From positions 12,599 through 76,598 of the forward strand of contig MPNG01000001.1 in assembly GCA_002238905.1 (NCBI GenBank): a DNA stretch of 64,000 nucleotides, written 5' to 3'. The stretch's first letter is position 1. Every line of letters starts with the position of its first letter. Of the stretch, positions 4,691-60,600 are shown piece by piece. The position numbers and the translations under genes are program-made. The DNA is from Alphaproteobacteria bacterium bin98. GTDB taxonomy: Bacteria; Pseudomonadota; Alphaproteobacteria; Bin98. Under the pieces are notes generated by a model that was not told where the DNA came from, ran no database searches, and was given only the letters and a program-made list of their open reading frames with translations.

Positions 4691-5288
4691 AATCCTTTTC
4701 TGTGGGAACGATTAGGCGATGCCAGGTTTGATAATAAGAAATAGCTACCTTATTACCATCACAGAAATTTAAACAAGATAGTAGAAGATTCTTATAAGCT
4801 TGTACATATTTTGCGTTCACAGCATCTGGATTCCCCTGATTACGGATATCGCTTATATCCAGCAGATATCTTTCTTCAGAAAAACACAAAGCTTGCATGA
4901 AGATTTCTGGACTAAGATGGAAGCGAGGACTTAGCATATTGATCGCTTGCTCTTTCACTCTGGAATAACTTATGTCAGGATGCTTTTCTGTCTGATACTC
5001 TAAAAGTATCGTCAGCAATGGGTCTGCAAAACCTTTTAATTCCTTAATGTTTTCCATTTGACTAATTGCTTGCGTCTGCAAGTGATCCGACACACGTTTT
5101 CTCCAGGGATTTTTGAAATTAGCTTGATTTAGTCTCCAACAAGAACACTGTAGAGCTTGTTCTAGAGGTGGTAGCTGACGCACTGCATCTAATCTTAGGC
5201 ATAATTCTTTTAACGCACTCTGACAACACGCATCCTCATCAGATCCATACACGTGCAAACAAAGGAAAAATAGTAGTATGAATTTCAT
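4689..5288 (-). CDS. Secreted paralog-family protein (subfamily B)
   Basis: 199 aa with leader MKFILLFFLCLHVYGS, an EKHPDIS motif and LLLSCLNFCDGNK. It is about 60% identical to 3596..4201. Confidence 0.7.
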   Translation of the reverse strand: MKFILLFFLCLHVYGSDEDACCQSALKELCLRLDAVRQLPPLEQALQCSCWRLNQANFKNPWRKRVSDHLQTQAISQMENIKELKGFADPLLTILLEYQTEKHPDISYSRVKEQAINMLSPRFHLSPEIFMQALCFSEERYLLDISDIRNQGNPDAVNAKYVQAYKNLLLSCLNFCDGNKVAISYYQTWHRLIVPTEKD

Positions 5289-13440: not shown

Positions 13441-14406
13441 CTATATCAAAATCAAAAAAGACAGCTGCTCTCTAAAGGCTCTCAATGCTTGACCATACGA
13501 GGCATTATTCGAACAAAAACCTTGCAAAGATGATAATAATTGAGAACATAAGATTATTCCCCATCTTTGATTCCATTCTCTGACCTCAATGCTAGCGCGA
13601 GATATTGCTACTTTTTTGAATTCAGAAAAAATATAAAAGAACGATTCTAGATCAAGTTTGGAAGTGTCGATATGTCTGAGGAAATTTTGCAGATTAAGCG
13701 GCTCAAGAGAAACGTCGATGTACAGTGTCTTTTCAGAAGTAAGTGACTTATTTTTCCAGAATTCCATCGCATCATCAGACATTACTCTTTTGGTCTCTAG
13801 ATCAAGAGGATATATGACGCTTCCTTCAGCATTAAAAGTAAGGGAGTCGAGAATAAAAAATCGCCTGGCACATATCTTTGTAGCAGTAAGATCAAGTATC
13901 TGCTGAGAAGTAAGTGCATGGTGTTTTGTGATCAATAATTTTTCGATAGAATCCGTTACTTTTTTTATCAAATTATATATTTGACTAAATGACAAACAGG
14001 AATAATCCAGATCTCTGGAAAGGAAGTAGGCATTTATCAAAGATTTTTTTTGTGCCTTTAATAAGAGGTCAGTTGGCTCTGACTCATCACCGGAGGCTCT
14101 TTGTAAAGCGCTATAACCATCTTCAGCATCGGCGAAAATGGCATTCTCTACTTTCCTCATGATCCTTTCCACAGCTGTGCTTATGCTCATTCTCCTGAAG
14201 CTTTCTATCACATATTGACCTCTATCGGAGGCACTTTGTGAATCGATATCCGCATCCTCATCATCAGGCAAAATAGTATTTATGGTCATGATCAAGAACC
14301 TTAACCTCCAATCACTATCATGATCGGAGGCACTGTTCGAAGCGCTATGCGCATCTAAAAAAATGAATAATAATATTAGAAATATCACAAAACTCCTATT
14401 TATCAT
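13441..14406 (-). CDS. Secreted paralog-family protein (subfamily A, long form)
   Basis: The ORF is 13441..14433. The alternative start at 14406 gives leader MINRSFVIFLILLFIFLDAHSA. It has KHHALTSQQILDLTATKI and LLSSLQGFCSNN. Confidence 0.7.
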   Translation of the reverse strand: MINRSFVIFLILLFIFLDAHSASNSASDHDSDWRLRFLIMTINTILPDDEDADIDSQSASDRGQYVIESFRRMSISTAVERIMRKVENAIFADAEDGYSALQRASGDESEPTDLLLKAQKKSLINAYFLSRDLDYSCLSFSQIYNLIKKVTDSIEKLLITKHHALTSQQILDLTATKICARRFFILDSLTFNAEGSVIYPLDLETKRVMSDDAMEFWKNKSLTSEKTLYIDVSLEPLNLQNFLRHIDTSKLDLESFFYIFSEFKKVAISRASIEVREWNQRWGIILCSQLLSSLQGFCSNNASYGQALRAFREQLSFLILI

Positions 14407-14689
14407 CTTATATGATTTTTTTTTAATAAACAAGCGTCGTATGGACTCTCATCACATAAGCTCAAACAAGCGGATAGAAGACAATAGTAAGCGCTTACAT
14501 ATTTTTGAGCCCTGCTCACTACTAGTACGACGTTGTGGATCAGGCCAATATTTTGCATTCAAAAAAGCAAAAGCATGCATGAAAAACATATGTACCTGCC
14601 AGTACACTCCACACGTTCTTTATTGCCTTTTTTTACAACACAATTCTTGATACAATGCTATTATTACACTATTTACTAAAGGGTATACT

Positions 14690-39725: not shown

Positions 39726-41030
39726 TCATTTAAAAGGAGTTTCTGGAATAGCTATGATACGAAAACCAGGCAGATCGACTGTTGATAAGTCTCCTGGCAA
39801 CTCAAGCATTGTGCATCCAGGACCCTCTAATGAGTATTGCGCATAGTGAGAAAAAGGCTTATCTTCTCTGGGATCAACTCGAAAGTGACAGCCAGCAACA
39901 TACACATGTAGCTTATCACTGACATTTTCAACTTTGTAAACAAACATTTCTGTCCCTTTATAAGCGAGTATTGTGCCTGCCCTTAAATCTACTTCGTCAC
40001 CTTTCTGGCAGATCTCGAAAAGCTCTTTCTGAGTGCGGCGTACTGCAGAGTTTATAATGGTAGAGGCGAAAGAGCTTGAGTCATGAGATTGTCCTGTTAT
40101 ATAGGCTCCCAAACCTCCCATTTGAAATCCTCCGCCCAATACTTGAGGGCAGAACCAGTAGTCAAACCCAGAAACCTCATATTTTTGATAAAAAGACCCT
40201 TCCGAAGTATTGAAACCTGTCAGAATGTCTAGAGGAGTAGGCTGTCCTCGCAATCGAGATATTTGTACTGTACCTGGAAAATATTCTTCAGCAGCTTTTA
40301 TCATTCCATCCAGAGTGTTATTTCCACGTGTCATCATAATGTGAAAAAGATAGGCATGAGCAAAAGGCATAAATCCTTCATGAGGATTTGGTTTCTGCAT
40401 TTCATCTTGTTTTTGTGCTTTGGCATACCAAGCAAATCCATCCTCTGTGCAAGAGTTATATTGCCAAATATGCATCCACTCTTTTGCATAGTCGTGTACG
40501 ATTCTAGTAGCTTTGCTTAGAAGATCGGGTGCAATATTGTGATTCACTGGCAAGACATTTGGGATTTGATCGTAAAGTTTTGAGTGTTGTTGCGCTTTAT
40601 AAAGCATAGATGCTTGCACATAAAGGAAGCTTTTTTGCGCAGAAGGACTCCAACAGTTAGGAGGGCACGATTCAAAGAAACCTTGGGATTCTTGTACATC
40701 TTCTGAAGAATCACCTACTTGAATCACACCGTATGTTGCTATTTGCGCTAGGAAGAGCCTTTCAGGGTGCTTAGCAGGCATTGCCGCAAAAAATTTTGTT
40801 TGAATAATCATAGATGCTATTTCTTTTGATTTTTCTTTATCTGCATAATCCCCCCAATCTTTTACAAGTTGATCGCGACTCATGATCCTATTTTTTGCAA
40901 AATTTGCAAAATCAGGGAGATTCAAAGGAGAATCTGCAGGTAACACACACAAAGGAATTGTTTTAACTGCTGACTGCGCCGTCGGAACTAACGCAAAAAG
41001 TAATAGGAAATAAGTTATATTCATACTCAA
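39726..41030 (-). CDS. Secreted 434-aa protein of unknown function (not a family member)
   Basis: It has signal peptide MNITYFLLLFALVPTAQSA. The body is Cys- and Gly-rich (GGGFQMGGLGAYITG) with no recognisable motif. Confidence 0.55.
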   Translation of the reverse strand: MSMNITYFLLLFALVPTAQSAVKTIPLCVLPADSPLNLPDFANFAKNRIMSRDQLVKDWGDYADKEKSKEIASMIIQTKFFAAMPAKHPERLFLAQIATYGVIQVGDSSEDVQESQGFFESCPPNCWSPSAQKSFLYVQASMLYKAQQHSKLYDQIPNVLPVNHNIAPDLLSKATRIVHDYAKEWMHIWQYNSCTEDGFAWYAKAQKQDEMQKPNPHEGFMPFAHAYLFHIMMTRGNNTLDGMIKAAEEYFPGTVQISRLRGQPTPLDILTGFNTSEGSFYQKYEVSGFDYWFCPQVLGGGFQMGGLGAYITGQSHDSSSFASTIINSAVRRTQKELFEICQKGDEVDLRAGTILAYKGTEMFVYKVENVSDKLHVYVAGCHFRVDPREDKPFSHYAQYSLEGPGCTMLELPGDLSTVDLPGFRIIAIPETPFK

Positions 41031-41411: not shown

Positions 41412-42488
41412 GTGCTAGAAGCCAATAGCCATGTTTTAATATCCAAGCAAAGTTTAAGAAGCAATTATCAATTTTTTGCTGATTATGTCTCTTCGGCTAA
41501 TGTTGCAGTGGTGTTGAAAAATAATGGATTTGGATATGGCTATGCAGAAATAACACCCGCACTCTATGCACAAGGCTGTAGGCGGTTTTACGTTGCAGAT
41601 GTAGAAGAAGCGCTCCGTATGCGGTCTTTTATGCCACATCAAGATGTTATTATAGCCCCCCTCTTTCCTCTAATTTCTCAAAACTCTCTTCACACTATGC
41701 GCAAGGCCGACCTTACCCCCTCCTTGAACAGCGTTGAAGATATTCAAACATACCTACGCTATGGGTGTGGAAAATCTTGTGTGGTGCGCGTAAGTTTTGG
41801 TCTCAATGTGGGTGTGCCTTATCAAAAAATTGCAGAATTAAAAGGTGAATTAGGCAAAATCAAGCAACTCACCGTTTTGGGGCACCTTCCTTTTGCAGAT
41901 GACAAAAATTCTTCTCATAACACAAATGCTCTAAAGGATATGATCGCACTGCGTCAACATTTGCCAGATGCGCGTTTTAGTTTGGCTTCTACAGCGGCAA
42001 TATTCCTTGGAAGTGAGTTTTTTATGGATGAAGCGCGTATAGGTGTGGGTTTGTTTGGTGCTGTTCATTTTTCTAACAACAATGCTGCAAAAAATGCGCA
42101 AGACAAAATTTCCTTTGCTTTAAAATTAAAAGCTTACACACGACATTCTTATTCTGTAAAAAAAGGTCAGATCCTTGGGTACGAAAGCATCGCAAAAGAA
42201 GATATGCAGATGGTGGTTGTGAGCTGTGGGTACGCAAATGGCCTTCCGATACAAAAAAGTAAAGAGCCACTCTCACTTCCATATCAAGGCAAATCTCTAA
42301 GATTAGTTCCAGAAACTCTCTCAATGTATAACGCATCTTTTGCTACTAACGATATTATTGCTTCTGGAGAAGAAGTCACTCTTCTAAAATCCTTTGAAGA
42401 TAGCATGCAATTTCGTCGTATAGAAAAAATCAACCACTCCGAATTGCTTCTGCGCATAAGCCGCGCCCACCAACAATTTATTCCGTAA
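41412..42488 (+). CDS. alr: Alanine racemase-like PLP enzyme (fold-type III), divergent
   Basis: The ORF is 41352..42488. The likely GTG start at 41412 lies 7 nt after an AAGGAG. Motifs are AVVLKNNGFGYG (compare AVVKANAYGHG), VKKGQILGYES (compare GExVGYG), VVVSCGYANGLP (compare PIGYADG) and LSMYNASFATND (compare VSMDMxxVD). Confidence 0.55.
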   Translation: MLEANSHVLISKQSLRSNYQFFADYVSSANVAVVLKNNGFGYGYAEITPALYAQGCRRFYVADVEEALRMRSFMPHQDVIIAPLFPLISQNSLHTMRKADLTPSLNSVEDIQTYLRYGCGKSCVVRVSFGLNVGVPYQKIAELKGELGKIKQLTVLGHLPFADDKNSSHNTNALKDMIALRQHLPDARFSLASTAAIFLGSEFFMDEARIGVGLFGAVHFSNNNAAKNAQDKISFALKLKAYTRHSYSVKKGQILGYESIAKEDMQMVVVSCGYANGLPIQKSKEPLSLPYQGKSLRLVPETLSMYNASFATNDIIASGEEVTLLKSFEDSMQFRRIEKINHSELLLRISRAHQQFIP

Positions 42489-42677
42489 ACACTATGTTTG
42501 TGTGAAGGACAGCTTCTTTGTCAATATGAGCATTTTTAATTCAACCGTGATTAATATCATGACTTTAAAAATAATGTAACGCTATCATGTCGTAATATTA
42601 TGATTTTCAATTTTCTTACATGATCATGGAGCGAAAAAAGTTTTTGAATCAGAAAATATATTAATCATATGGGTGAG

Positions 42678-43318
42678 TTAAACAAGCATAAAGATCAATT
42701 CGCTCAGCACAACATCACGAGCCTCGTATTCATACATGTGTGTGAGACGCCAAATATTATATTTTCGTTCAGCGACTTCCTTATTATCCGCACAGTAAGC
42801 TTGAAAAGCTGATAAGAGGAGCCAATACTGCTGCGTATATATTGGGTCTAGCGAAGAGAGATCTTTTTTATATCTTGCCTCTAAGAGTAGTGAGTGACCC
42901 CTCTCTCTCAATACTAAAAAAGCATAACAAAAGATCTTTGCATCAAGCTCAAAGTACACATCTAGGAGATTTTTCTCATAATTCACATCACCTGCTCTGA
43001 AGACATCCCTTTTTCAGAAGGCATCAAGTACATTTTCTATTTGCTCTGAGAAAGCCATTAATTCTTTAAGATTCCTTATATCAAAAAAATTTTGAGGGTT
43101 TAATATATCTTGACAGGTTTTCCTGCAGGTGAAACATTCTTGATTTTTTGCCACCTAATAGTGCGCATAGCTTGCTCCTGGATTATAATCCGTTCACTAA
43201 TTTTCTTGAGTCTGAGAAGATCAGCAGAATTCTCTAACGATATTGCGTCATCTGCTTCATGCGCCAGTGAATAGATTAAAAATAGTAAGATTAATTTGAT
43301 AAATGCATTTCATAGAGA
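42678..43318 (-). pseudogene. Decayed tandem copy of 43379..44029 (subfamily K)
   Basis: The C-terminal ORF 42678..42986 (…ERKYNIWRLTHMYEYE) has an upstream remnant MKCIYQINLTIFNLFTGA*. DNA 43060-43320 aligns to 43760-44020 with stops. Confidence 0.6.
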
Positions 43319-43378
43319 AACCGTATCACATCTTCATCATACCCTCAATCAATTTAAGAGTGGATGGGTTGAAAGGGC

Positions 43379-44029
43379 TTAGATTAGCTCCATGTTCTGC
43401 TGCATCACAAAATCACGAACCTTGTGTTCCTGTAGGTGTGTGAGACGCCAAATATTATATTTTCGTTCAGCGACTTCCTTATTATCATCAGAGTAAGCTT
43501 GAAAAGCTGATAAGAGGAGATGATACTGCTCCGCATATATTGGGTCTAGCGAGCAATCTTGCCTCAACATTATATAGCTTGCCTCTAATAATACTGCGCC
43601 ACACTTCTTTCTCAATACTAGAAAAGCATCATAGAAGGTCTTTGCATCAAGCTCAAAGAGCACATCTAAGAACTTTTGTGAAGAACCCACCTCCCCTGTT
43701 CTGAATATATTATTGCTTTTGCAGAAGGTGTCAAGCTTATTTTCTATGCGCTCTGAGAAAGCCATTAATGTTTCAAGATTGCTTATATCAAGAAAATTGT
43801 AAGGATTTAATATATCTTGACAGGCTTGCCTGCAAGTGAAACATTTTTGATTTTCTTTCCAGCGAACACAGCGCATATCTTGCCTCTCGATAGGCAAACA
43901 GCACTTGATTTCCCTTATTCTTTGAAAATCAGCATAATTCTCCAAATCGATTTCGGCACCTGCTCCATGCGCCAGTGAATAGATTAAAAATAATAAGATT
44001 AATGTCATGCTCATAAATGTACCTTTCAT
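43379..44029 (-). CDS. Secreted paralog-family protein (subfamily K, ERKYNIWRL type)
   Basis: 216 aa. The alternative start at 44014 gives leader MTLILLFLIYSLAHGAGAE. The C-terminus is LLLSAFQAYSDDNKEVAERKYNIWRLTHL. Confidence 0.7.
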   Translation of the reverse strand: MKGTFMSMTLILLFLIYSLAHGAGAEIDLENYADFQRIREIKCCLPIERQDMRCVRWKENQKCFTCRQACQDILNPYNFLDISNLETLMAFSERIENKLDTFCKSNNIFRTGEVGSSQKFLDVLFELDAKTFYDAFLVLRKKCGAVLLEASYIMLRQDCSLDPIYAEQYHLLLSAFQAYSDDNKEVAERKYNIWRLTHLQEHKVRDFVMQQNMELI

Positions 44030-44505
44030 AGAAAAATCATATCACATGTTCTTCATATCCTCACTTTGTCAATCAATACATTTAACAAAAGTATTATTTT
44101 TCTCATCACTCACATGATCTGTTGACAAAATGAAGTGACCAATTTGGAATTTGGATAGACAACTTCTAGCGGTTGGTGAGCCCAATCACAGTATTTTTTC
44201 TTATATTTCTCTTTATTTTTGTTTGAGAGATTTCATCAATGCCAACGAAGAATATAATGCTTTGTTAGCTCTTGTAATAGCATATAGAGATAGACCTCTA
44301 TTGCAATTTTGTACATTATTAAAAAATCAAAAATTTGAGAAGACTGTTTACACTTTTCCTCTAGAGAGAAAATCAGCTATTTCAACACACCTCCATGCCT
44401 CTTGAACGCAGTCTATGTTCGCAATCAAAAATTTATATAGTAAGGTACAGGTTTTGTGCTGACTATTTAGCGTATTCTCCCGCTTCAAGATTTTAGCCTA
44501 TTCTG

Positions 44506-45125
44506 CTAGGCATTATTAATCCACGTACTCTTCTTCCTTGAGCAAATCCTTAGTAACATTCCTTCGTGGAGGTGTATAAAACGACAAATATTAAACTTTC
44601 GTTCAGATTCATCTTGAATTTCTAAAGAGTAATTTCGAAGATCTGATAAGAGACTATGATACTCCTGAATGTATCTTAAGCCTTGCAGAGGAGGGCCGCT
44701 CTCGCATTGATATTCTCTCTCTAAGCATCGTAAATGCACATTTCCTCTCAAGAGTGAAAAAGCACAGAAGAAGGTTAATGCATTAAGTTCAAATCTCCTC
44801 TTTAGGGACTCTGACATATCAAAATACACAACATCCCAATCGCCTATTAGATCAATTTTGTGTCAGAATTCTGCAAGCATCATATTAAGAAAAACTGCAG
44901 GATCGAGATTCTTTTCAAAATATTCTCGGACAGAATCAAAACGTTGTTGATCTGAGGTCCAGTTAAAAGCGCGCATACCTCGCTCTTTAACTGTTAAACG
45001 AAGCAATGAATAAAACCTTTGTGCGTCAGCAACATCCTCAAGAGGATGGCTCTCTCTGAAAGACGGTTTGACATAAGTTAATGATGCTCCATGAGCTTTT
45101 GAATAGATAAAAATTAAAAAAACAA
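44506..45125 (-). pseudogene. Chimeric pseudogene. It joins a C-terminal fragment of a subfamily-K gene (44506..44829) to an N-terminal fragment of a 46140-type gene (44870..45125).
   Basis: 44506..44829 encodes ...ELNALTFFCAFSLLRG...ERKFNICRF. 44870-45320 is about 95% identical to 46187-46640, and a TGA separates the two parts. Confidence 0.55.
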
Positions 45126-45321
45126 TAACATAAATTTTTTTCTCAACATGAGCATTTTCAATGAAACCGTAATTAATATTATCACTTGAAAAAAATAATT
45201 TATAACGCTGACATGTCGAATATTATTATTTTTAATCTGTTTACATGCTCATGGCGCTAAAAAAGTTTTTGAACCAGATAGACTATATTAATCATCTTGA
45301 TGAATTAAGGGTCTTGGAAAC

Positions 45322-46050
45322 TCAGTGCGGCCCAGCTCTCCTCCGCATCACAGCATCACGAACATTAGGTCCCTCGAGGTATCTGAGACGCCAAATATTA
45401 TATTTTCGTTCAGCTTTTTCATGATTCTCCACACAGTAAGCTTCCATAGCTGATAAGAGGTCATGATACTGCTGGATGTATATTGGCGGAGACAAATATT
45501 GCTGAAATTCTGGCTGATCGTACAGACAGTAATTTTGAAAAGATAATAAGAGGTCGCGACACTCCGGCGTGTACGCTGAGTTTGACGGAGACAAATATTG
45601 CTGAGATAATTTTTTATATCTTTGCGCTGATAATACTGACGTAACATGGCCTCTCAACATTGCAAAAGCACAGAAGAAGCTGAATGCATTAAGCTCAAAG
45701 AGCTCATCTGTGACAATGTTCACAACAGACTTCATATCAGCATAAGCGATTAAATTATGGTGCTGGTTTTTCTTCAGAAGCTCTTCTAATTCCACTGAAA
45801 ATGCCATTAATTCTTCAAGATCGACCATCTCAATCCACTTCTGAGAATCGAGTATTTTTTTACAAGCTTCCCCGCAATTCCCAAAATGTTCTTGATTTTT
45901 TATCCTGTTGAGCTCCCGCACACCTTGCCTTTCTACTGACAGACGGTTGAGTGCAGTTATTCTTTGCGCATCAGCAAACTCCTCCAGAATGGTGGTGGGC
46001 TCTGCTCCATGCGCCAGTGAATAGATTAAAAATAATAAGATTAATGTCAT
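45322..46050 (-). CDS. Secreted paralog-family protein (subfamily K), copy 1 of the tandem pair
   Basis: The ORF is 45322..46098. The start at 46050 gives leader MTLILLFLIYSLAHGAEP. The C-terminus is LLSAMEAYCVENHEKAERKYNIWRLRYL. Confidence 0.7.
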   Translation of the reverse strand: MTLILLFLIYSLAHGAEPTTILEEFADAQRITALNRLSVERQGVRELNRIKNQEHFGNCGEACKKILDSQKWIEMVDLEELMAFSVELEELLKKNQHHNLIAYADMKSVVNIVTDELFELNAFSFFCAFAMLRGHVTSVLSAQRYKKLSQQYLSPSNSAYTPECRDLLLSFQNYCLYDQPEFQQYLSPPIYIQQYHDLLSAMEAYCVENHEKAERKYNIWRLRYLEGPNVRDAVMRRRAGPH

Positions 46051-46139
46051 GAATAAACCTCTAATACAAAGTTTATATCCTATTCTCAGCTTTATCAATG
46101 AAGAAATTTAAAAAAATGATTGTTCCCCTCATGTTCACA

Positions 46140-46499
46140 TCATACCAACATTGGTTGTGAGAATTCCATTAATTTTTTAATACACTTTATATTAAGAAAA
46201 ACTGCAGGATCGAGATTCTTTTCAAAATATTCTCGGACAGAATCAAAACGTTGTTGATCTGAGGTCCAGTTAAAAGCGCGCATACCTCGCTCTTTAACTG
46301 TTAAACGAAGCAATGAATAAACCCTTTGTGCGTCAGCAACATCCTCAAGAGGATGGCGCTCTCTGATAAAACGGTTTGACATGACATAAGTTAATGATGC
46401 TCCATGAGCTTTTGAATAGATAAAAATTAAAAAAAACAATAACATAAACTTTTTTCTCAACATGAGCATTTTCAATGAAACCGTAATCAATATTATCAC
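46140..46499 (-). pseudogene. N-terminal gene fragment (leader plus about 90 aa) lacking the C-terminal family domain
   Basis: MLLFFLIFIYSKAHGASLTYVMSNRFIRERHPLEDVADAQRVYSLLRLTVKERGMRAFNWTSDQQRF..., then a stop. The same fragment is present in the other repeat unit at 44870..45125. Confidence 0.45.
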
Positions 46500-46638
46500 T
46501 TGAAAAAAAATAATTTATAATGCTGACATGTCGTTAATATTATTATTTTTAATCTGTTTACATGCGCATGGAGCTAAAACAGTTTTTGAACCAGATAGAT
46601 TATATTAATCATCTTGATGAATTAAGGATCTTGGAAAC

Positions 46639-47367
46639 TCAGTACGGCGCTCTCTCCTTCACAGCAGCACAAACATTAGGTCCATTGAGGTATGTAAGAC
46701 GCCAAATATTATATTTTCGTTCAGCTTTTTCATGATTCCCCACACAGTAAGCTTCCATAGCTGATAAGAGGTCATGATACTGCTGGATGAGCATTTCTGG
46801 CGGAGACAAAGATTTCTTAGATTTTGGCCGCTCGTACAGACAGTAATTTTGAAAAGATAATAAGAGGTCGCGACACTCCGGCGTGTACACTGACTCTGAC
46901 GGAGACAAATATTGCAGAGATAATTTTTTATATCTTTGCGCTGATAATACTGACGTAACCTGGCCTCTCAACATTGCAAAAGCACAGAAGAATTTGAATA
47001 CATCAAGCTCAAAGTACTCATCTGTGACATTGATAACAACAGCCTTCATATCAGGACGAGTGATTAAATCAGTCTGCTGGTTTTGCTTCAGAAGCTCTTC
47101 TAATTCCACTGAAAATGCCATTAATTCTTCAAGATCGACCATCTCAATCCACTTCTGAGAATCGAGTATTTTTTTACAAGCTTCCCCGCAATTCCCAAAA
47201 TGTTCTTGATTTTTTATCCTGTTGAGCTCCCGCACACCTTGCCTTTCTCCTGACAGATGGTTGATTTCATTTATTCTTTGCGCATCAGCAAACTCCTCCA
47301 GAATGGTGGTGGGGGGCTCTGCTCCATGCGCCAGTGAATAGATTAAAAATAATAAGATTAATGTCAT
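46639..47367 (-). CDS. Secreted paralog-family protein (subfamily K), copy 2 of the tandem pair
   Basis: The ORF is 46639..47415. The start at 47367 gives leader MTLILLFLIYSLAHGAEPP. It is about 90% identical to 45322..46050. Confidence 0.7.
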   Translation of the reverse strand: MTLILLFLIYSLAHGAEPPTTILEEFADAQRINEINHLSGERQGVRELNRIKNQEHFGNCGEACKKILDSQKWIEMVDLEELMAFSVELEELLKQNQQTDLITRPDMKAVVINVTDEYFELDVFKFFCAFAMLRGQVTSVLSAQRYKKLSLQYLSPSESVYTPECRDLLLSFQNYCLYERPKSKKSLSPPEMLIQQYHDLLSAMEAYCVGNHEKAERKYNIWRLTYLNGPNVCAAVKERAPY

Positions 47368-47695
47368 GAATAAACCTCTAATACAAAGTTTATATCCTAT
47401 TCTCAGCTTTATCAACGAAGAAATTTAAAAAAATGATTGTTCCCCTCATGTTCACATCATACCAACAAAGGTAGTAAGCACTCGGAATTTGATATCTTAT
47501 AAGGGCTGTTGAAACAAAGCATGACAAGTTGCATTGTGAGACGTTGCGCAATCTAAGAAGTCATAATAGAGAAATCTTAAAAAAAAGCGTGTGAGAATAT
47601 TGACAGATTCATATTATGTGAATGAGTTGTGTTGGTCCAAATTTGCTCTGCAAACACCATTTTTTCGTGCAAAGTACAATGATATAATACAAAAG

Positions 47696-51240: not shown

Positions 51241-52446
51241 ATGCATCATCGTCAATTTGTCATCTGGTCTGGATGGTTAGTAGTATCACTTTTTTATGCG
51301 TATCAATACATTTTACGCGTACTTCCTAACATTATTTTGCCATTTCTGACAGAGCGTTATGCCATGGACGGAGTGCTCTTTGGACAATTTTCAGGCTTAT
51401 ACTACACAGGTTATGCGCTTGCGCATGTTCCTTTAGGTATCCTATTGGATCGATTTGGTGTTAAAAAAGTTCTTCCCCTTAGTTTTGCATTAACATTTTT
51501 AGGTATTTTACCCATTATTTATGGAAGTACCTGGCATTATCCCGCCATTGGACGATTGATCACGGGCATTGGCTCATCAGCAGCTATATTGGGTGCATTT
51601 CAATATATACGTCTCGTTTTTTCTGAGGGACGATTTACGCGCGTTTTGAGCATGACTGTTACCGTTGGTTTGATGGGTGCCATTTATGGAGGACAGCCCA
51701 CACAATATCTTTGCGATACTTACGGCGTGTATACTGTTATACACTTTTTAGTTGTTGTTGGATGTTTACTTTCTCTGGCAGCATATATCATTATGCCTAC
51801 CTCTAAAAAAGAACATCAAAAAAAGATTGGTTTTAAAGAAATTTTCCAAATCCTGACAAACACACGTACCTTATTGCTCGCCATTGCTTCTGGCTTTATG
51901 GTAGGCGCATTAGAAGGGTTTCCAGACGCTTGGGGTGTGGCTTTTTTAACAAAAGTGCACAACGTTACCGCCAAAGATGCCGCACAATTAACATCCTTTA
52001 TCTTTTTCGGCATGTGTTTTGGCGGCCCTCTTTTAAGCTACATTGCTGACAGCACAAAGCGTTATGTAGAAACCATTATTGGGGCTGGATTGGTGATGAC
52101 AGCATTGTTCTTTATTATTTTATTTTGCTCAGTGCCCGTGAGCTTGCTTTACATATTCTTCGTCATTATTGGTATCTCTTGCGCTTACCAAATCCCTGCT
52201 ATTTATCAAGCATCAACATATGTTGAAAAACAATTCACTGGCCTTGCCACCGCTCTCGTCAATATGGTGATTATGGGGTTTGGACACTTGCTTCACTCAA
52301 CAATTGGTGCAACAGTGAACTCTTATGGAGGGATTGACTCTGTATCTGGTTTGCACGCCGGCGTCTTAACGGTACCGATCACTTGTGTAATGGGTGTTAT
52401 GCTGCTTTTGTTGTTTAGAAAGTCTCTAGAAAAAGGTGGCTCATGA
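51241..52446 (+). CDS. MFS-type transporter, paralog 1 of 3 in tandem
   Basis: 401 aa with 12 predicted TM segments. The conserved N-terminus is FYAYQYILRVLPNI...GQFSGLYYTGYALAHVPLGILLDRFGVKK (an MFS loop 2-3 like motif). The substrate is unknown. Confidence 0.85.
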   Translation: MHHRQFVIWSGWLVVSLFYAYQYILRVLPNIILPFLTERYAMDGVLFGQFSGLYYTGYALAHVPLGILLDRFGVKKVLPLSFALTFLGILPIIYGSTWHYPAIGRLITGIGSSAAILGAFQYIRLVFSEGRFTRVLSMTVTVGLMGAIYGGQPTQYLCDTYGVYTVIHFLVVVGCLLSLAAYIIMPTSKKEHQKKIGFKEIFQILTNTRTLLLAIASGFMVGALEGFPDAWGVAFLTKVHNVTAKDAAQLTSFIFFGMCFGGPLLSYIADSTKRYVETIIGAGLVMTALFFIILFCSVPVSLLYIFFVIIGISCAYQIPAIYQASTYVEKQFTGLATALVNMVIMGFGHLLHSTIGATVNSYGGIDSVSGLHAGVLTVPITCVMGVMLLLLFRKSLEKGGS

Positions 52447-53648
52447 GCAATAGATTAAAAGGATTACCTCTTTGGATCAGTTGGCTATTTGCCACCGCTT
52501 TTTATGCGTATCAATACATATTACGTGTACTTCCTAATATAATGTATGAACCTATTGTCAAAAAATTTTCGATTGATGCTCATATTTTTGGTCAATTTTC
52601 TGGCGTTTACTATACAGGGTACGCCTTGGCTCATATTCCTCTAGGTATTCTATTGGATCGATTTGGTGTCAGAAAAACACTCCCACCTATGATTATTATT
52701 TCTGTATGTGGGCTTCTTCCTATTCTGTATTCAGATTTATGGCTATATCCTGTCATTGGAAGATACCTCACAGGTATTGGTTCAGCAGCAGCCCCTCTTG
52801 CAGCTTTTTATATTATTAGAATTGGATTTTCTGAATCCCAAGGCCCACGTATGCTGAGCTGGTTTGTGACCTTTGGTTTACTAGGCGCCATTTATGGAGG
52901 CACTCCCACCACTTATTTTTGTCAAAAATTTGGATATGAATCTGTTCTGAAAAGCACCATTGTTTTTGGATTTTTTATGGCTTTTATTGGCTTTTTGTAC
53001 CTACCAAAAGAAGAGAGCAAAAAAAGAAAATATGCTGCGTTGCAAGGAATATGGAAAATTCTTAAAAACAAAAAAACCATTATTATTGCCTTATCTTCTG
53101 GCTTAATGGTTGGTTCATTAGAGGGATTTCCAGATGCATGGGGAGGCATTTTTCTTACGAAAGTCTACGGTCTTGATCTAAATCTAAGTGCGCACTTAAC
53201 TTCCTTAATTTTTCTAGGCATGTGTTTTGGCGGCCCATGTTTAGCTTTTATTGCCGAATATCTGAAAAAACCTATTATGACAGTCATTTTAGCAGGATGC
53301 GTTATGACAATAACATTTTGTTCAATTCTTTTATTCACCCTATCAACAATCTTGTTAAATGTTATGTTTGTGTGTGTTGGCATTTGTTGTGCCTATCAAA
53401 TGATAGCTATATACAAAGCAGCGTCTTATGTAGACCCTAACTCCGCCACCTTAGCGACAGCTATTGTTAATATGATTATTATGATTTTTGGTCATATCCT
53501 ACACACCAGCATTGGTGCGGTCGTAGCATATAACGGAGGCATGCAAAGTATCTGGGGCTTACAAATGGGCATAAGCGTTATACCTATGTTCTGCCTAATG
53601 GGTGTTGTAGTGTTAGCCTATAACTATAAAAGATTGAGGAAGGATTAA
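52443..53648 (+). CDS. MFS-type transporter, paralog 2 of 3
   Basis: 401 aa. Its start overlaps the upstream stop (ATGA) and has an AAGGTGG SD. It is about 50% identical to paralogs 1 and 3. Confidence 0.85.
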   Translation: MSNRLKGLPLWISWLFATAFYAYQYILRVLPNIMYEPIVKKFSIDAHIFGQFSGVYYTGYALAHIPLGILLDRFGVRKTLPPMIIISVCGLLPILYSDLWLYPVIGRYLTGIGSAAAPLAAFYIIRIGFSESQGPRMLSWFVTFGLLGAIYGGTPTTYFCQKFGYESVLKSTIVFGFFMAFIGFLYLPKEESKKRKYAALQGIWKILKNKKTIIIALSSGLMVGSLEGFPDAWGGIFLTKVYGLDLNLSAHLTSLIFLGMCFGGPCLAFIAEYLKKPIMTVILAGCVMTITFCSILLFTLSTILLNVMFVCVGICCAYQMIAIYKAASYVDPNSATLATAIVNMIIMIFGHILHTSIGAVVAYNGGMQSIWGLQMGISVIPMFCLMGVVVLAYNYKRLRKD

Positions 53649-53650
53649 AT

Positions 53651-54856
53651 ATGATGTCTGTAAGCTTAGCGATGTGGCGCAATTGGTCATTTATCACACT
53701 GTTTTATGCCTACCAATATATAGTGCGCGTATTACCCAATATTATCTACAAACCTATTGTAGAAACCTTTGGCATTAATGCTACTATTTTTGGACAATTT
53801 TCAGGCATTTATTATATAGGATACGCATTAGCACACATACCTGTAAGCCTATTGTTTGATCGATTTGGATTGAAAAAAGTTCTACCACTAACGCTTTTAT
53901 TAATGGTGGGAGGGCTTTTGCCTATTATTTATACAGAATCATGGATTTACCCTGTATTTGGAAGATTTTTAACCGGCATTGGCTCTGCCTCCGTAACGCT
54001 GGCGGCTTTTCACATTATTCGTGTAGGATTTCCCGTGGCAAAACATCCTATGATGCTAAGTTTAACAATAGCATTGGGATTGGTTGGGGCTGTTTATGGA
54101 GGAAGGCCTACAGCTTACCTTTGCGACCAACTTGGACATGTAGCCGTTATTCAGATTTTGGTTGCGGTAGGCAGTATTATTTCTGTAATTTCTTATATTT
54201 CACTTCCTAAGGAAAAAAATCGTTTAAAAGATGTGCAAATTTTGAAAGGCCTTAAGCATGTTTTTTGTAACAAAAACACCATGTGGATGTCTCTTACAGC
54301 GGGTTTAATGATTGGATCACTTGAAGGTTTTCCAGATGCTTGGGGCGTTATGTTTTTTACAAAAGTATACGGACTTCAGTTTGATTACTCCGCCCAATTA
54401 ACCTCTCTTATATTTTTAGGTTTAGGAGTTGGCGGCCCATTGGTTAGCTACGCAGCAGAAAAAACTGGAAAAGCCCTTTGGTTTATTATCATCGCAGGCA
54501 TTTGTATGGCTGTTCCCTTTTTATTCTTTTTGGGAATGCAGCTTTCTGACACAATGCTGATCGTTTCATTGATTACTATTGGAGTGGGATGCTCTTATCA
54601 AATGCTCTCTATTTACCATGCCTCTTACTTTGTGGAAAAAAAATATGCCACTATTTCTACAGCAGTGGTGAATATGATTTTGATGGGGTTTGGACATTTA
54701 CTACACAGCGCAATTGGATGCACCGTCAATATTTCAGGCGGATTGGATAATGTGCAAGCCTTGAAAAATGGCCTTTATGTTGTTCCATTAGCCAGCCTTT
54801 TGGGTGCTATTATTTTAATTATTCGCAGAAAATATTTTCAAAACCTCAAATCCTGA
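53651..54856 (+). CDS. MFS-type transporter, paralog 3 of 3
   Basis: 401 aa. It has a GAGGAAGGA SD and the same architecture. Its 3' end is duplicated at 57119..57379. Confidence 0.85.
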   Translation: MMSVSLAMWRNWSFITLFYAYQYIVRVLPNIIYKPIVETFGINATIFGQFSGIYYIGYALAHIPVSLLFDRFGLKKVLPLTLLLMVGGLLPIIYTESWIYPVFGRFLTGIGSASVTLAAFHIIRVGFPVAKHPMMLSLTIALGLVGAVYGGRPTAYLCDQLGHVAVIQILVAVGSIISVISYISLPKEKNRLKDVQILKGLKHVFCNKNTMWMSLTAGLMIGSLEGFPDAWGVMFFTKVYGLQFDYSAQLTSLIFLGLGVGGPLVSYAAEKTGKALWFIIIAGICMAVPFLFFLGMQLSDTMLIVSLITIGVGCSYQMLSIYHASYFVEKKYATISTAVVNMILMGFGHLLHSAIGCTVNISGGLDNVQALKNGLYVVPLASLLGAIILIIRRKYFQNLKS

Positions 54857-55070
54857 CGCATGACATTTTTGAACAAATTTTTTTCTGACAGAGCAGAAAA
54901 AGGTTAGCTATATATTTTTGACACTCTACTTTTCAATCAATTCCTGCTAAAAACATAAATGAGGTATTTTTCCATGCCTTTAAAAGGTGATATTTTTTAG
55001 ATAAAAATAAATATTTTTATTTAAACAATATTATTCTATTGATGTATAATTTTTTCATCAAAAGGTATTA

Positions 55071-55208
55071 TATGTCGCTACTGTTGTTCTTATTTTTTAT
55101 TGCTTTAGATTCCCAAGGATATCACAAGATTACAGATTTTATGGAGACTACTCTTGAGCACACTAAAGCCAAATGCGCCCCTACTCATAGAGTGATCCTG
55201 TCTAGATA
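55071..55208 (+). pseudogene. Short remnant homologous to the 5' end of 57609..61223
   Basis: It encodes MSLLLFLFFIALDSQGYHKITDF..., then a stop after 45 codons. Compare MPVVLFLFFISLESQGACKPC at 57609. Confidence 0.4.
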
Positions 55209-55528: not shown

Positions 55529-56095
55529 ATGATATTAATATTATTATTTTCAATCGCTTTAAATATTTATGGATCTGCTCGTACCATATACTACTCTCTA
55601 ACAAACTTAACAAATTCTGGGTTATCCAAACAAGTGATGTAAGACAGTTTGTCGGTTAAAGAAGTTGAGATACCGCGTAAACTATTTGTAGAATCTTGGC
55701 AAGAAGCAAAAGAATTTTCTGAATGTGTTGTGGTATATGAAAACATAAAACTAGCTCATACACAAACGTGTAAAAATCTAGATGCAATGCGTGAACTCAA
55801 TGAAAAAAATCCGAGACCAGAGACTCAAAGCGAGTTCATGCTATATTGCGACGTAGTGGAATCACTTCCAGAAACAACACGCCAACTAGAAGAAGCAGTA
55901 GTAGAGTTAGCAAAATCATCTAAAATCGCGAAAAGACAAAAGGAAGAAAAGAAGAAAAAAATACAATCTCAACATGCGGCATTAGACACAAATGAAGGAG
56001 TTTTGAAACTACTTGAAGATAGGGGAACGGTTGAAAAGCTTTGGCAATCATTGGAGGGACGTGCTAAAGTAGCGCAAAAGAAAACAATATACTAA
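55529..56095 (+). pseudogene. Family-like gene interrupted by a single in-frame TAA after the leader
   Basis: ATG at 55529 encodes MILILLFSIALNIYGSARTIYYSLTNLTNSGLSKQVM, then TAA at 55640-55642. This is in frame with ORF 55649..56095, which has no Met or leader of its own (the ORF track starts it at TTG). Confidence 0.5.
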
Positions 56096-56868
56096 ATAGG
56101 ATGTGGGAAAAAGTATTCATAATGCTCTAAATACATTAAGCACCAGCGCGCATATTCTTGATCACTGCGGAGTCTTCTTTCATTACAGTAAAATTGAAAA
56201 GAATTTAAGAGGGCATAAAACATACTGTATATTATGCGGCGAGCCTTCTCACAGGGACCTCCTGGCCCACTATCCTGACAATTCTCCATAGCTACATCCT
56301 GTTTATAAGAGATTGATTCCATTCTAGAAAAAGCGTCGAAGAATTTTGATGGTGTAAGGTTAAATGGATGATTTGCCGTAAGCGATACGTCTTTTGTCAC
56401 ACCAGGTTCTAACGGGCTTTCACACTTTAATTGAATGGACGTCACTGGATTGGGTATAAGCGATACGTCTTTTGTCACACAAGGTTCTGACGTGCTTGTA
56501 AATTTTAATTGAGTGGGCGTCACTGGATTTGTAAGCAGCCCGTCTTCTATCTCACAAAATTCCACCGCGTATGCAAGATTTTTGTGTACAAATTTCATCC
56601 ATGTCCTGGCTGCCATATAATTAGCTGGACTATATTTCAGCATGCAATCCAAATCTACATTCCTAAAATTTTTAAATGTTATTCTGCGTGAGTCAAATTC
56701 TGCTTGATTTTTTGCCCATAAAGCACTATGGTAGTTCATCACCCTCCCTTGCATAGCACTCACGGAGTGAGCCATGTTTAAAAGAACTTTTTTCAGATAC
56801 CCATCATCTTCTTGAGATGTAGCGCCATAGACATATAAAGCACTTAAAAAAAATAGTAGAAATAACAT
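56092..56868 (-). CDS. Secreted paralog-family protein with an in-frame tandem repeat of about 80 bp
   Basis: The ORF is 56092..56886. The start at 56868 gives leader MLFLLFFLSALYVYGA. The repeat LLTNPVTPTQLKFTSTSEPCVTKDVSL / IPNPVTSIQLKCESPLEPGVTKDVSL lies at DNA 56378-56538. The C-terminus is ALLNSFQFYCNERR. Confidence 0.65.
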   Translation of the reverse strand: MLFLLFFLSALYVYGATSQEDDGYLKKVLLNMAHSVSAMQGRVMNYHSALWAKNQAEFDSRRITFKNFRNVDLDCMLKYSPANYMAARTWMKFVHKNLAYAVEFCEIEDGLLTNPVTPTQLKFTSTSEPCVTKDVSLIPNPVTSIQLKCESPLEPGVTKDVSLTANHPFNLTPSKFFDAFSRMESISYKQDVAMENCQDSGPGGPCEKARRIIYSMFYALLNSFQFYCNERRLRSDQEYARWCLMYLEHYEYFFPHPI

Positions 56869-57118
56869 AAAAATATCCGACGTCATTATATCTCACGTTA
56901 TTCAATAATTCAATACATATCTGCTTGATTCAAATAAGGAATTGTCAAAACCCCAAATCCCTACGGAATACATTTTTAGACAAGCTTTTTTGTCTGAAAA
57001 AAACTGTATATAGGCTAAAATTTTTCTTTTTTAGCTAATGCCATTCCTCTTGAGCATTGCTTCAGAACAATCTTTAGATACTCTTAAAGCTACACTAGTA
57101 ATCAGAGCCTATCCATAA

Positions 57119-57545
57119 ATGTGTATACAAATTAAAATAATACTAGCACCATTAAATGGAAAAAAATATGCCACTATTTCTACAGCAGTGGTGAATATGA
57201 TTTTGATGAGGTTTGGACATTTACTACACAGCGCAATTGGATGCACCGTCAATATTTCAGGCGGATTGGATAATGTGCAAGCCTTGAAAAATGGCCTTTA
57301 TGTTGTTCCATTAGCCAACCTTTTGGGTGCTATTATTTTAATTATTCGCAGAAAATATTTTCAAAACATCAAATCCTGACGCATGACATTTTTGAACAAA
57401 TTTTTTTCTGACAGAGCAGAAAAAGGTTAGCCATATATTTTTGACACTCTACTTTTCAATCAATTCCTGCCTAAAAACATAAATGAGGCATTTTTCCATG
57501 CCTTTAAAAGGTGATATTTTTTAGATAAAAAATATTACTATGTTG
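57119..57545 (+). pseudogene. Duplicated 3' fragment of MFS paralog 3 plus its downstream spacer (a copy of 54600..55010)
   Basis: ORF 57119..57379 encodes KKYATISTAVVNMILM(R/G)FGHLLHSAIGCTVNISGGLDNVQALKNGLYVVPLA..IRRKYFQN, nearly identical to the end of 53651..54856. The following roughly 165 bp is also near-identical. Confidence 0.7.
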
Positions 57546-57608
57546 TTTTCTTTTTTTGTTTTTCTTTTTACTATATACGATGTATAATTGAACCATTAGA
57601 GGTTTTTT

Positions 57609-60600
57609 ATGCCAGTAGTGTTGTTCTTATTTTTCATTTCTTTAGAGTCTCAAGGAGCTTGCAAGCCTTGTATGCCAATTAATGAATATCCTAGTGTCAG
57701 CTTATCCCCTACAGTCAGTCTACAGATCTGTGTTTCAAAAACATCCAAATTGGATCCAATGTATAAATATCCTGGACTCCGTCAACAAACCATATTGCAT
57801 GAAATGCAATGTGGTTTGTGGAATCCAATGTATCAATATCCTGGACTCCGTCAACAAACCACATTGCATACAGTGCAGGAAGAGACGGGTCTCCACCTTC
57901 CTCCAGTCCGTCAACAACTATTGTTTTCAAAATGCATGAAAAAATCTTTGCAATATTTGGATTTGGCATATTTAGATGTAGCAGATCAACGAAGGGTAAA
58001 AGCCAAGCAAATAGAAGGAGTATTATTTTGTGCAAAAAGATCCAAATGTCAAACTAAATTCATAAAAAAATCTGTGGAATATTTGGATGTAGTAGAGCAA
58101 CAAGGAGAGCAACGAAGGACAAAAAACCATGAACAAGCTAAAGAAACTGAAACAACACTAGTGTCTCAAACAGAAGCTGATCAACTAGCTGATGTAGAAG
58201 ATGCATGCGATATTGTACTAATGTTTGAAGAAGTTGCGCAAGCTGCTAAACTAGGTGCAGAAGATTCTGCAAGAGAGTCTGAAGCATATGCTCAATACAG
58301 TAAAAGAGCTGCTGAAGCTAAGAAATTAGCTGCTCTACATCCTCGCCAAGTTTGGTTAGAGATTCAAAGGTCTAGGAAACAATATGCTCAAGTAGTTGAG
58401 GCTCGTATTAATCAGGATACTAAAATCAGTGAAATGTTTGCTAAAGTAGTTGCGGGTCGAACTGATCAAGAGACTAGCCTTGCTGAAAAACTTGCTCTAC
58501 AAGATGCGAAAGAAGTTGAGATCGAGAGTAGAGAGACTTACGTAAATGCTCAGAATGCGGCCTTAAAAAGCTATGCCGATGCTGAACAAGCTTTAGAAAA
58601 AGGAAGACTAGCACATCAAGCATTTACGGAAGCGCAAACGCTTGCTAAAGAAGCTGCACAACAGCTAAACGATGCACAACAGGTAAACGATATTAAACAA
58701 GATGCTGAACAAGCTTCAGAAAAAAGAAAACTAGCATATCAAGCATTTACGGAAGCGCAAAATCTTGCTAAAGGAGCTGCAGAACAGGTAAAGAATAAAA
58801 AACAAGATGTTGCATGCGCAGACGAAAAGCGAAAACTAGCGGATGACGAATTTCAACGAACTCAACTTCTTCTTGAACAAGCTAATGAACAAGTACGCAT
58901 TTTGAAACAAGATGCTGAATGCGCAGATCAAAAGAGAAAACGAGCGTATCACGCACTTCAACAAGTTCAATTTCTTCTTAAAAAAACTACTAAAAAAGTA
59001 CGCCTTGAAGCATCTGCTCAACAATATCAACTAGCGCTTGCAGAATTTACGGAAGCTCAAACTCTTGCTACACACACTGAACAAGAGGTGAACAATATTA
59101 AACAAGATGCTGCATGCGCAGATAAAAAGAAAAAACTAACGGATTACGAATTGCAACACACTCAATTTCTTCTTGAACACGCTAGTGAACTAGTACGCAT
59201 TTTTAAACAAGACGCTGAACGCGCAGATCAAAAGAGAATACTAGCGTATCAGGAACTTCAACCAATGCCATGGCTTCTTACAAAAGCTACTGAACGATTA
59301 CGCCTTGAAGCATCTCGTCGACAAGATGAGGAACAACGAGCGCATCAAGAATTTATAAAACGTCATGAGCTTGCTATAGAAGCTGCACAAAAGCTGAACG
59401 ATATTAAACAAGATGCTGCATGCGCAGATAAAAAGAAAAGACTAGCGTATCACGAATTTCAACACGCTAAATGTCTTCTTGAACACGCTAGTGAACTAGT
59501 ACGCATTTTTAAACAAGACGCTGAACGCGCAGATCAAAAGAGAATACTAGCGGATGACAAGTTTCAACAAACTCAATTTCTTCTTGAAAAAGTTAGTGCG
59601 CAAGCACGCCTTGAAGCATCTGAGCAACAATATCAACTAGCGCATGAAAAATTTACGCAAGCTCAAGCGCTTGCTACAAAAGCTGCACAAAATGATATTA
59701 AAGATGCTGCAAGAGAAGCTCAAAAGAGAATACTAGAGTATAATGAATTTCAACAAGCTAAATTGCTTCTTGCAAAAGCTACTGAACGAGTACGCATTTT
59801 GAAACAAGATGCTGCACGAGAAGATCAAAAAAGAATACTAGCGTATCACAAATTTCAACAAGATAAATTGCTTCTTGCAAAAGCTACTGAACCACTACGC
59901 CTTGAAGCATCTCGTCGACAAGATGATGAACAACGAGCACATCAAGAATTTATGAAACGTAATAAGCTTGCTATGGCAGCTACTGAAAGACTTTACCAAA
60001 ATAACAAACTAACTCAGGAAACGCTAAAAAAATTGATGCAAGATGAGCAACTAACGGAAAAATATTCTAAACGAGTTGCGGTACGAGATGCTGAAGCTAA
60101 GAAAGTAACTGAACTAGATGCTAAACAACTTTCGGAGCTAGATGCTATACAGTTGGCTCAAGAGCGTCATTTGCAAAAGAAGAAATTAGTTTTGCAAGAG
60201 CGTGCACGAGATGCCGTACGAGCAATGCAATCTAAGAAACTAGCTGAAGCATGCATGAAACGAGCTGTAGAACGATCTTATGAGCTATCTTCTAAACCAG
60301 ATACGCAACGATCTGCTAAACGGATTACAGAAGATCACAAAAAACTAGAAAAATCTGCCGCACTATCTGCGCAACGATCTGCTACACGAATTGCAGAAGA
60401 TCTAAAAAAATCTGCTCAACAAGATGTATGCCCTCATACAAGTGCGGTGATTCCTTTATTGCAAGCCATCACCGGAAAAAGAAAATCTTCTGCATCTTCA
60501 GATTCACCCTCTCATACAAGTCCGATCATTGTCCGCGCTTTATCCAACAGTATTCACCAGCAACAACAATTTCAGAAAGCTGAGCGGGTACGAGCTGCGA

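Follow-up and report, generated by a model that had tools for sequence, protein, structure and literature searches.

The closest described parallel to the locus studied here comes from the Parachlamydiaceae, in which the PEX and NEX families of F-box and BTB-box effectors underwent birth-and-death expansion (Domman et al. 2014, PMC4209131). Members of these families bear recognisable eukaryote-like domains and evolve under purifying selection, with ratios of nonsynonymous to synonymous divergence (dN/dS) of 0.29-0.63 (PMC4209131). In this study, we analysed a cluster of six paralogous members located between alr and dnaE in a 64,000-nucleotide stretch of contig MPNG01000001.1 from Alphaproteobacteria bacterium bin98 (the whole stretch is hereafter called the window). 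Three members, A, B and C, are intact, and the other three, X', X and D, are dead. Like the Parachlamydiaceae families, which belong to a host-associated bacterium and follow the birth-and-death model of Nei and Rooney (PMC4209131), the cluster is lineage-specific and largely arranged in tandem, with recent duplicates and with pseudogenes among the intact members. Unlike in those families, we found no known domain here, the proteins carry a putative Sec-type signal peptide (assigned by eye), and the youngest pair, A and B, shows a dN/dS of about 4.7. The best overall reading, to which we assign a probability of roughly 0.8, is that A and B arose by a tandem duplication that is now fixed, diverged under positive selection and continue to exchange sequence, and that their products are exported proteins facing a changing partner.

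Other known systems share single aspects of the locus. The Bep arrays of Bartonella reportedly arose by tandem duplication followed by positive selection, and here as well, in an alphaproteobacterium, tandem duplicates of (in our case probably) exported proteins diversify adaptively. Beps possess FIC and BID domains and a type IV secretion signal, and their genes are situated next to virB/D4; none of these features was found at this locus. In Anaplasma msp2/p44, Borrelia vlsE and Neisseria pilE/pilS, one expression site is combined with many silent truncated cassettes, and variation occurs at high frequency within a clone. The locus resembles such segmental gene-conversion antigenic variation in that short tracts pass between paralogs of an exported protein under diversifying selection, but differs from it in that both copies are complete genes and in that one conversion event separates near-identical strains. 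Ehrlichia OMP-1/p28 arrays and the paralogous lipoprotein families of Borrelia are clusters of paralogs on the same strand with fragments and pseudogenes; the conserved signal-peptide-coding 5' ends and the intermingled fragments and pseudogenes of our cluster are reminiscent of these. Each of the processes at work here, whether duplication, conversion, birth-and-death evolution or positive selection of secreted paralogs, is already well documented. The locus discloses no new mechanism; it adds an unusually clean case of a known evolutionary pattern, seen here in an orphan protein family.

Two tandem units next to dnaE

The original prediction described two open reading frame (ORF) copies, about 90% identical in DNA and offset by 1317 bp, and our analysis agreed with it. 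The maximal ORFs (45322..46098 and 46639..47415; minus strand, 777 nt and 258 aa each when read from TTG) lie exactly 1317 bp apart at both ends, and blastn aligned two head-to-tail copies, 44882-46161 (R1) and 46189-47478 (R2), with 93.3% identity over 1,296 columns (E=0). The repeat is longer than the ORFs, as the duplicated sequence in the blastn alignment goes beyond both of their ends. A repeat search gave local spacings of 1307-1317 bp owing to small indels, and the ORF ends are exactly 1317 bp apart because the indels in the coding region (+3, +3 and -6) cancel one another. The identity between R1 and R2 was 94.8% in the ~100 bp of 5' upstream sequence, 93.0% in the coding region when gap columns were excluded (about 91.5% when they were included), 95.6% in the 3' intergenic region and 96.7% in the X/X' part, i.e., the last ~310 bp; the two proteins are 84% identical. 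Only a junction zone of 27-38 nt, and no unrelated DNA, separates the copies, which is the arrangement of a tandem segmental duplication with direct head-to-tail copies.

On the minus strand, the order from dnaE is A, X', B, X, C and D, followed by the end of alr; dnaE itself starts at 47591, is divergent, and lies 223 bp from the start of A. The likely start codons are ATG at 47367 (A) and ATG at 46050 (B), each with an AGAGG 7 nt upstream. Public gene calls agree with the ATG starts and give products of 242-243 aa (243 aa in the alleles P0001, P0009 and P0010). Among the intact genes, only A and B were seen to be preceded by this AGAGG Shine-Dalgarno sequence, and the two also share duplicated upstream DNA.

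The junction between the two units carries the mark of how they were formed. There, X breaks off after about 110 codons and continues into the upstream region of B: the X-derived coding sequence with its LMEFS motif extends to about 46155, the upstream region of A/B is joined at about 46150, and the reading frame crosses the junction at about 46151-46157 and then meets a stop codon. Since the duplication breakpoint was located inside X, a truncated X' was left at the junction. One founding breakpoint falls within X and the other 96-111 bp upstream of A, and a comparison of this pair gave only scattered matches, with a few bases of microhomology at most and no extended homology. As the founding breakpoints are non-homologous, the first event was most likely illegitimate or microhomology-mediated and not the unequal crossing-over between paralogs that had been proposed as the origin; unequal homologous exchange became possible only after the duplication had made two 1.3-kb units. 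The copied segment of ~1.3 kb comprised ~100 bp of upstream sequence, the ancestral A/B gene and part of X, and we suppose that illegitimate recombination was responsible, to judge from breakpoints that share no real homology. The event gave rise to two complete genes, A and B, each equipped with its own upstream region, plus the truncated X'.

Each unit had been predicted to carry an N-terminal gene fragment. This is correct for 46140..46499, which is truly truncated (X'), but 44870..45125 does not stand alone: tblastn extended it into 44506..44829, and it turned out to be the N-terminal half of the full-length pseudogene X. X is disabled by a single stop codon (TCA>TGA, 44863-44865) and by the loss of 1 nt from a run of T near 45123. 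An intact, more distant copy and a decayed one (42678..43318) had been noticed further along the cluster, and we recovered both as C and D (Table 1). At the amino-acid level C is still 39-46% identical to A and B (the value varies with the alignment method), and in DNA it is 78% identical to D. X and D, both older members, are decaying through point lesions.

An artefact of assembly, which the original prediction had itself raised, would turn the two units into a false expansion of a single-copy locus or the collapsed remainder of a longer array. In line with this possibility, three short contigs (L009, L011 and L012) link dnaE to a single unit, and the contigs L004, L007 and L010 break at the repeat. 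Nevertheless, both copies and the junction were reproduced in nine other independent assemblies (ERZ27241794, -795, -796, -798 and -788; JGI 3300027532, 3300027327 and 3300027391; GCA_026710745.1), with contigs 99.9% identical to the window. The two-copy structure is carried by MEGAHIT contigs from all five ENA assemblies (67-116 kb long in four of them), and is shared by the three JGI assemblies and the NCBI metagenome-assembled genome. Every long contig has two copies and no contig has three. The product of X' is on record in 10 contigs, and a contig spanning the junction is present in the nine other assemblies. Short reads can resolve the copies, because these differ by ~7% and by several indels. 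With nine independent assemblies sharing the copies and the junction, we consider an artefact exceedingly improbable.

The same data bear on the age of the duplication. The synonymous divergence (dS) between A and B is 0.02, and the divergence of the flanks about 0.04, while strain diversity outside the cluster is ~1e-4 (about 2-4 sites differ in about 16 kb); the dS of the pair is therefore ~100 times the strain diversity. Together with the copies and the junction shared among the nine assemblies, this indicates that the duplication is fixed in all sampled populations and predates the sampled strains. Within the window, nevertheless, no duplication is younger than that of A and B; the pair that comes next in age has a dS of 0.12. 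What had been called a recent tandem amplification is a true tandem duplication, but it is not recent relative to the strains, and with just two copies it is not an amplification.

The one-copy arrangement was found solely in the three short contigs mentioned above, each of which shows one clean switch from A to B. The switch is placed within the identical 43 nt at 46917-46959 in L012 (3.6 kb, ERZ27241797), which encodes the hybrid protein P0012, and within the identical 99 nt at 47317-47415 in L009 (JGI 3300002150) and L011 (JGI 3300002147). If these contigs are genuine, they represent deletion alleles generated by unequal homologous exchange between R2 and R1, and the population is polymorphic in copy number. 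This idea is favoured by the nature of the switch, which is single and clean, occurs inside an identical stretch and is followed by the unique sequence of X downstream, by a private single-nucleotide polymorphism (SNP) in L012 (47240), and by a comparable repeat-mediated deletion of 2,523 bp in the 113-kb contig L014 (see below). On the other hand, the contigs are short (1.1-3.6 kb) and were assembled from short-read metagenomes, their switch points coincide precisely with places at which a de Bruijn graph could jump from one copy to the other at low coverage, and all long contigs have two copies. The copy-number polymorphism anticipated in the original prediction has thus gained three candidate recombinants, but these are not distinguishable from assembly chimeras, and we put genuine deletion alleles at somewhat short of even odds.

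Selection and exchange between A and B

A and B diverge under strong positive, diversifying selection with their frames intact. By the Nei-Gojobori method, the alleles of the window differ by 3 synonymous versus 49 nonsynonymous changes (dN/dS 4.56), and the alleles unaffected by the conversion described below by 3.5 versus 60.5 (dN/dS 4.88). The deficit of synonymous changes was significant in a binomial test (P=0.002 for the window alleles, and P=0.0003 for the unconverted ones). The 64 differing nucleotides are distributed over codon positions 1, 2 and 3 as 24:29:11. When the observed mutation spectrum was placed randomly in a Monte Carlo simulation, 15.1 +/- 3.3 synonymous changes were expected, and none of the 5,000 trials reached the observed 3. 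Nonsynonymous divergence (10.6%) is 2.7 times that of the non-coding flank (3.9%; Fisher's test, P=2.5e-5). Besides the three indels mentioned above, the coding region has a 3-bp indel in the converted patch, and all four are multiples of 3, whereas indels of 1 and 2 nt also occur in non-coding sequence. As a control, three neighbouring MFS transporter paralogs gave dN/dS values of 0.2-0.3.

The original prediction mentioned neither positive selection nor gene conversion, and as we understand it the copies would be drifting. Were this the case, one or both redundant copies would be on their way, under relaxed constraint, to becoming pseudogenes such as X and D. Half of the cluster (three of the six members) is dead already, and the older comparisons of A or B with C give a dN/dS of about 1.0-1.25, both of which are compatible with neutral decay. 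However, relaxed constraint predicts a dN/dS of about 1 and not the 4.6-4.9 observed for A and B. We reject it on the basis of (i) this ratio, (ii) the significant synonymous deficit and (iii) a nonsynonymous divergence higher than the non-coding rate; in addition, both 242-aa frames are intact and indels in them are exclusively in frame. Neutral decay of A and B is thus very improbable.

Sequence exchange between the two genes became evident when the window was compared with other contigs. Over 14,004 aligned bases, the window and contig L001 differ at 14 positions, and 13 of these fall inside 47109-47195 of A. In this patch the A gene of L001 differs from B at all 13 positions, including the 3-bp indel, which amounts to 11 amino-acid changes, whereas the A gene of the window is the same as B. 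The unconverted state was observed in all 11 other contigs covering the patch. We found no other donor for the unconverted patch in the window and the compared contigs, and rejected an origin of that patch from another paralog on this ground. A B-to-A conversion tract of 87-163 bp in the lineage of the window is the parsimonious reading. The conversion is very recent, as only two further SNPs in 20 kb (41967 and 56100) are private to the lineage. The longest stretch over which the units are identical measures 99 nt, or 163 nt in the converted allele of the window, and the units remain substrates for homologous recombination. The original prediction of ongoing birth-and-death by unequal crossing-over therefore stands as regards recombination between the units, which the B-to-A tract documents, and the coexistence of intact and dead members, but fails as regards the origin of the pair. 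Exchange between paralogs, as in concerted evolution, was seen as this one tract of B into A; overall homogenisation of the family was not found, A and B being 16% different in protein and the other members showing 17-46% identity.

Point polymorphism is also concentrated in the intact genes. A, B and C, 2.1 kb in total, were found to contain six polymorphic sites (43714, 45626, 46901, 46914, 47129 and 47240), all of them changing an amino acid, and the density of SNPs is roughly 10-20 times that in the flanking dnaE, alr and MFS transporter genes.

These observations raise the question of whether A and B serve as mutual cassettes in a programme of variation, with frequent segmental conversion and crossover producing mosaic variants of a surface or secreted protein inside one population, as at antigenic-variation loci. 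Two of the five known A alleles are indeed A/B mosaics (P0011 with a patch of B, and P0012 with the head of A and the tail of B), all six point polymorphisms of A, B and C are nonsynonymous, and the selection is diversifying. Against this, both copies are complete, each with its own start codon, Shine-Dalgarno sequence and upstream region, and are not silent promoterless cassettes; only one conversion event is secure among at least 10 assemblies; no recombination-site repeat, simple-sequence tract or signature of a diversity-generating retroelement (DGR) was found; and P0012 may derive from a chimeric contig. We therefore regard programmed variation as quite unlikely. The cluster likewise shows no arrangement of one expression site with silent cassettes, since A, B and C each have an ATG and a putative signal peptide.

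Two specific mechanisms of variation were considered and rejected. Mutagenesis of the DGR type does not agree with the differences between A and B, which affect all four bases and comprise 33 transitions and 31 transversions, with adenine at 17-23 of 62 differing sites, and no reverse transcriptase domain was found in the neighbours tested. Phase variation by simple sequences is contradicted by Tandem Repeats Finder, which reported only three trivial 2-copy arrays.

It is attractive, albeit rather doubtful, to speculate on a form of shuffling in which A and B constitute a two-gene set, and recurrent short conversions and unequal exchanges yield mosaics that are favoured by a host or a competitor. 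If this is the case, the pair would be a minimal form of recombinational antigenic variation acting at the population level in an uncultured, symbiont-like alphaproteobacterium, and would involve a family that is found nowhere else and that is also present in this genome as a nine-domain giant of 1,581 aa.

Returning to the overall reading of a fixed duplication followed by positive selection and continued exchange, several points weigh against it. The estimate of dS hangs on 3 synonymous changes. Earlier conversion events might have removed or brought in differences to an uneven extent and so distorted dN/dS, and this ratio comes from a pairwise comparison in which the substitutions are unpolarised. 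The converted allele is known from the window plus an unretrieved database record of two contigs. Finally, the signal peptide was assigned by eye and not by a predictor.

The protein family and its neighbourhood

The N-terminal segment MxLILLFLxxxxxHG/A is common to all members and resembles a Sec signal peptide with an AHG/A-type site. The sequence MTLILLFLIYSLAHG/A is conserved across the family; its hydrophobic core and the small residues at -3/-1 were judged by eye, and it was modelled as a helix (residues 2-15). Other conserved positions are W..NQ..F, F.L....F..AF, Y..LLSSF..YC and a W. An AlphaFold2 model has 10 helices and is all-alpha (pLDDT 78, pTM 0.74). Searches of Pfam, NCBIfam and PHROGs gave no match, and none at a meaningful E-value was found among PDB sequences. 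A phage origin was rejected. A single-sequence search of 5.8 billion proteins returned 3 clusters, all of them orthologous, and a profile search of 1.84 billion representatives returned 43 proteins, of which those traced came from the organism of the window; a scan of 185,579 species representatives with protein C gave no relative. The organism itself is a divergent alphaproteobacterium, its dnaE product being 36-50% identical to those of GTDB species representatives, with a GC content of about 37%.

One relative from this organism, P0014 (contig L106, 665-5434; JAPOQJ010000089.1), is a protein of 1,581 aa with nine tandem family domains behind one signal peptide. The duplication process appears to operate inside a gene as well.

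Table 1. Positions of the features of the cluster and the window
Feature	Position	Strand	Description
R2	46189..47478	-	Unit adjoining dnaE; comprises gene A, its upstream region (promoter-like site, Shine-Dalgarno sequence), the intergenic region 3' of it and the initial ~105 codons of X'
R1	44882..46161	-	Content of the R2 type, but containing gene B and the N-terminal portion of pseudogene X
Gene A	46639..47367	-	242 aa, intact; putative signal peptide MTLILLFLIYSLAHG/A; identical to protein P0011
Gene B	45322..46050	-	242 aa, intact; identical to P0002
X'	46140..46499	-	Truncated paralog: putative signal peptide and ~110 residues resembling the family, the LMEFS motif among them
X	44506..45185	-	Full-length paralog, now a pseudogene (tblastn, frames, alignment to X')
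C	43379..44014 (maximal ORF to 44029)	-	Intact older paralog, 211 aa
D	42678..43303	-	Decayed paralog of C: start codon lost, one frameshift, one in-frame stop
Junction zone of the duplication	46151..46188	-	Three-way comparison of junction, X and dnaE-proximal flank, and translation
Gene-conversion tract in A	47086..47248 (minimum 47109-47195)	-	A of the window equals B here
Internal tandem duplication of ~33 codons	46710..46908 (A); 45396-45594 (B)	-	LSPxxxY..LLSxxxYC twice
Promoter-like site TTGATA-17-TAAACT	47387..47415; twin 46070-46098	-	Consensus scan only, not evidence of function
Inverted 5' relic of a family gene	46528..46608	+	MSLILLFLICLHAHGA..., runs for 26 codons before a stop
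Remnant of a third X-like 5' end	42487..42573	-	Downstream of D, abuts the end of alr
Family ORFs (examples)	3596-4234, 4689-5288, 5691-6398, 23210-26163, 27992-28684, 38986-39591, 56092-56886		
Second family (6 ORFs)	1196-1774, 2606-3355, 13441-14433, 22496-23095, 26658-27701, 28976-30109		

Traces of earlier events are visible within the cluster. The internal duplication of ~33 codons is present in A and B, without a counterpart in C, and its score was reached by one of 2,000 shuffled sequences; it predates the duplication that separated A and B. Two further inverted relics, homologous to that listed in Table 1 and likewise on the plus strand, were found at 45219-45290 and 42594-42653, so that one is located downstream of each of A, B and D. 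The third X-like 5' remnant is supported by an identity of 73% over 352 nt between 42514-42845 and 45136-45486. A module composed of gene, relic and 5' end of X is thereby present three times in the cluster, which points to earlier rounds of duplication in a similar register. A scan of the region for terminators gave no signal above shuffled controls.

The window as a whole is a paralog island, with at least 18 ORFs of the all-alpha family with signal peptides and several smaller paralog families; nearly all paralog ORFs are on the minus strand. Most of the large ORFs in the window (726, 403, 1204 and 548 aa) gave no Pfam domain. Two other adjacent pairs of young orphan paralogs, 3596-4234/4689-5288 and 61687-62649/62722-63555, have dN/dS values of 2.1 and 1.5. 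Adaptive divergence following tandem duplication could be a common feature of the region. The signal-peptide DNA at 46528-46574 is 84-87% identical over 43-47 nt to 27655-27701 and 1719-1761, between two paralog families that otherwise look unrelated, and it is this DNA that recurs in the inverted relics downstream of A, B and D; the families may have exchanged a common 5' module.

Three tandem MFS transporter genes are present at 51241-54856. They encode exactly 401 aa each and are 46-50% identical to one another. At the first boundary, start and stop codons overlap by 4 nt (52443-52446), whereas 2 nt separate the genes at the other. The triplet is an old triplication under purifying selection, unlike the surrounding orphan genes, which evolve fast. 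The 3' end of the third gene and a partial fourth copy form direct repeats of 480 bp (54637-55100 and 57160-57637; 90% identical) that flank a 148-aa gene and a 264-aa family gene. Contig L014 (113 kb, ERZ27241798) is devoid of the intervening 2,523 bp and shows one clean switch in an identical stretch of 108 nt; the difference is likely a repeat-mediated deletion polymorphism.

Two further genes in the window deserve mention. The orphan gene for a 548-aa protein (36864-38510) has a 6-bp in-frame indel polymorphism at 37396-37401, the 6 bp being absent in L013, L102 and L007. Between the outlier member of the cluster (38986-39591) and alr lies a 434-aa ORF (39726-41030) with an N-terminal hydrophobic segment, which gave no match in Pfam or NCBIfam and is kept in all assemblies.

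The locus as an example of birth-and-death evolution

The occurrence of intact and dead members side by side gives the cluster the anatomy of birth-and-death evolution. As expected for such a family in the sense of Nei and Rooney, the divergence between paralogs is graded, from A and B (dS 0.02) through C and D (78% DNA identity) to A or B against C (dS 0.4-0.5), and pseudogenes (X, X' and D) as well as three inverted 5' relics are dispersed among the intact members. After the founding event, A and B were pushed apart by diversifying selection with their frames kept, while the units went on recombining. From this evolutionary behaviour, we infer export of the proteins and an encounter with a changing partner, for which a molecule of a host or a competitor is the most likely candidate. 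Proteins in such a position would find new variants favoured, and these would be supplied by duplication and recombination.

To our knowledge, whole-gene pairwise dN/dS values near 5 are rare in bacteria. The locus joins a value of this order with a dated series of events, comprising duplication, truncation of a neighbour, adaptive divergence and a conversion tract that separates strains differing elsewhere by ~1 in 10,000 bases. It is a compact natural example of how variants of exported proteins arise in an uncultured bacterium, and the orphan family, with at least 18 copies in 64 kb, is likely an interface between the organism and its partner.

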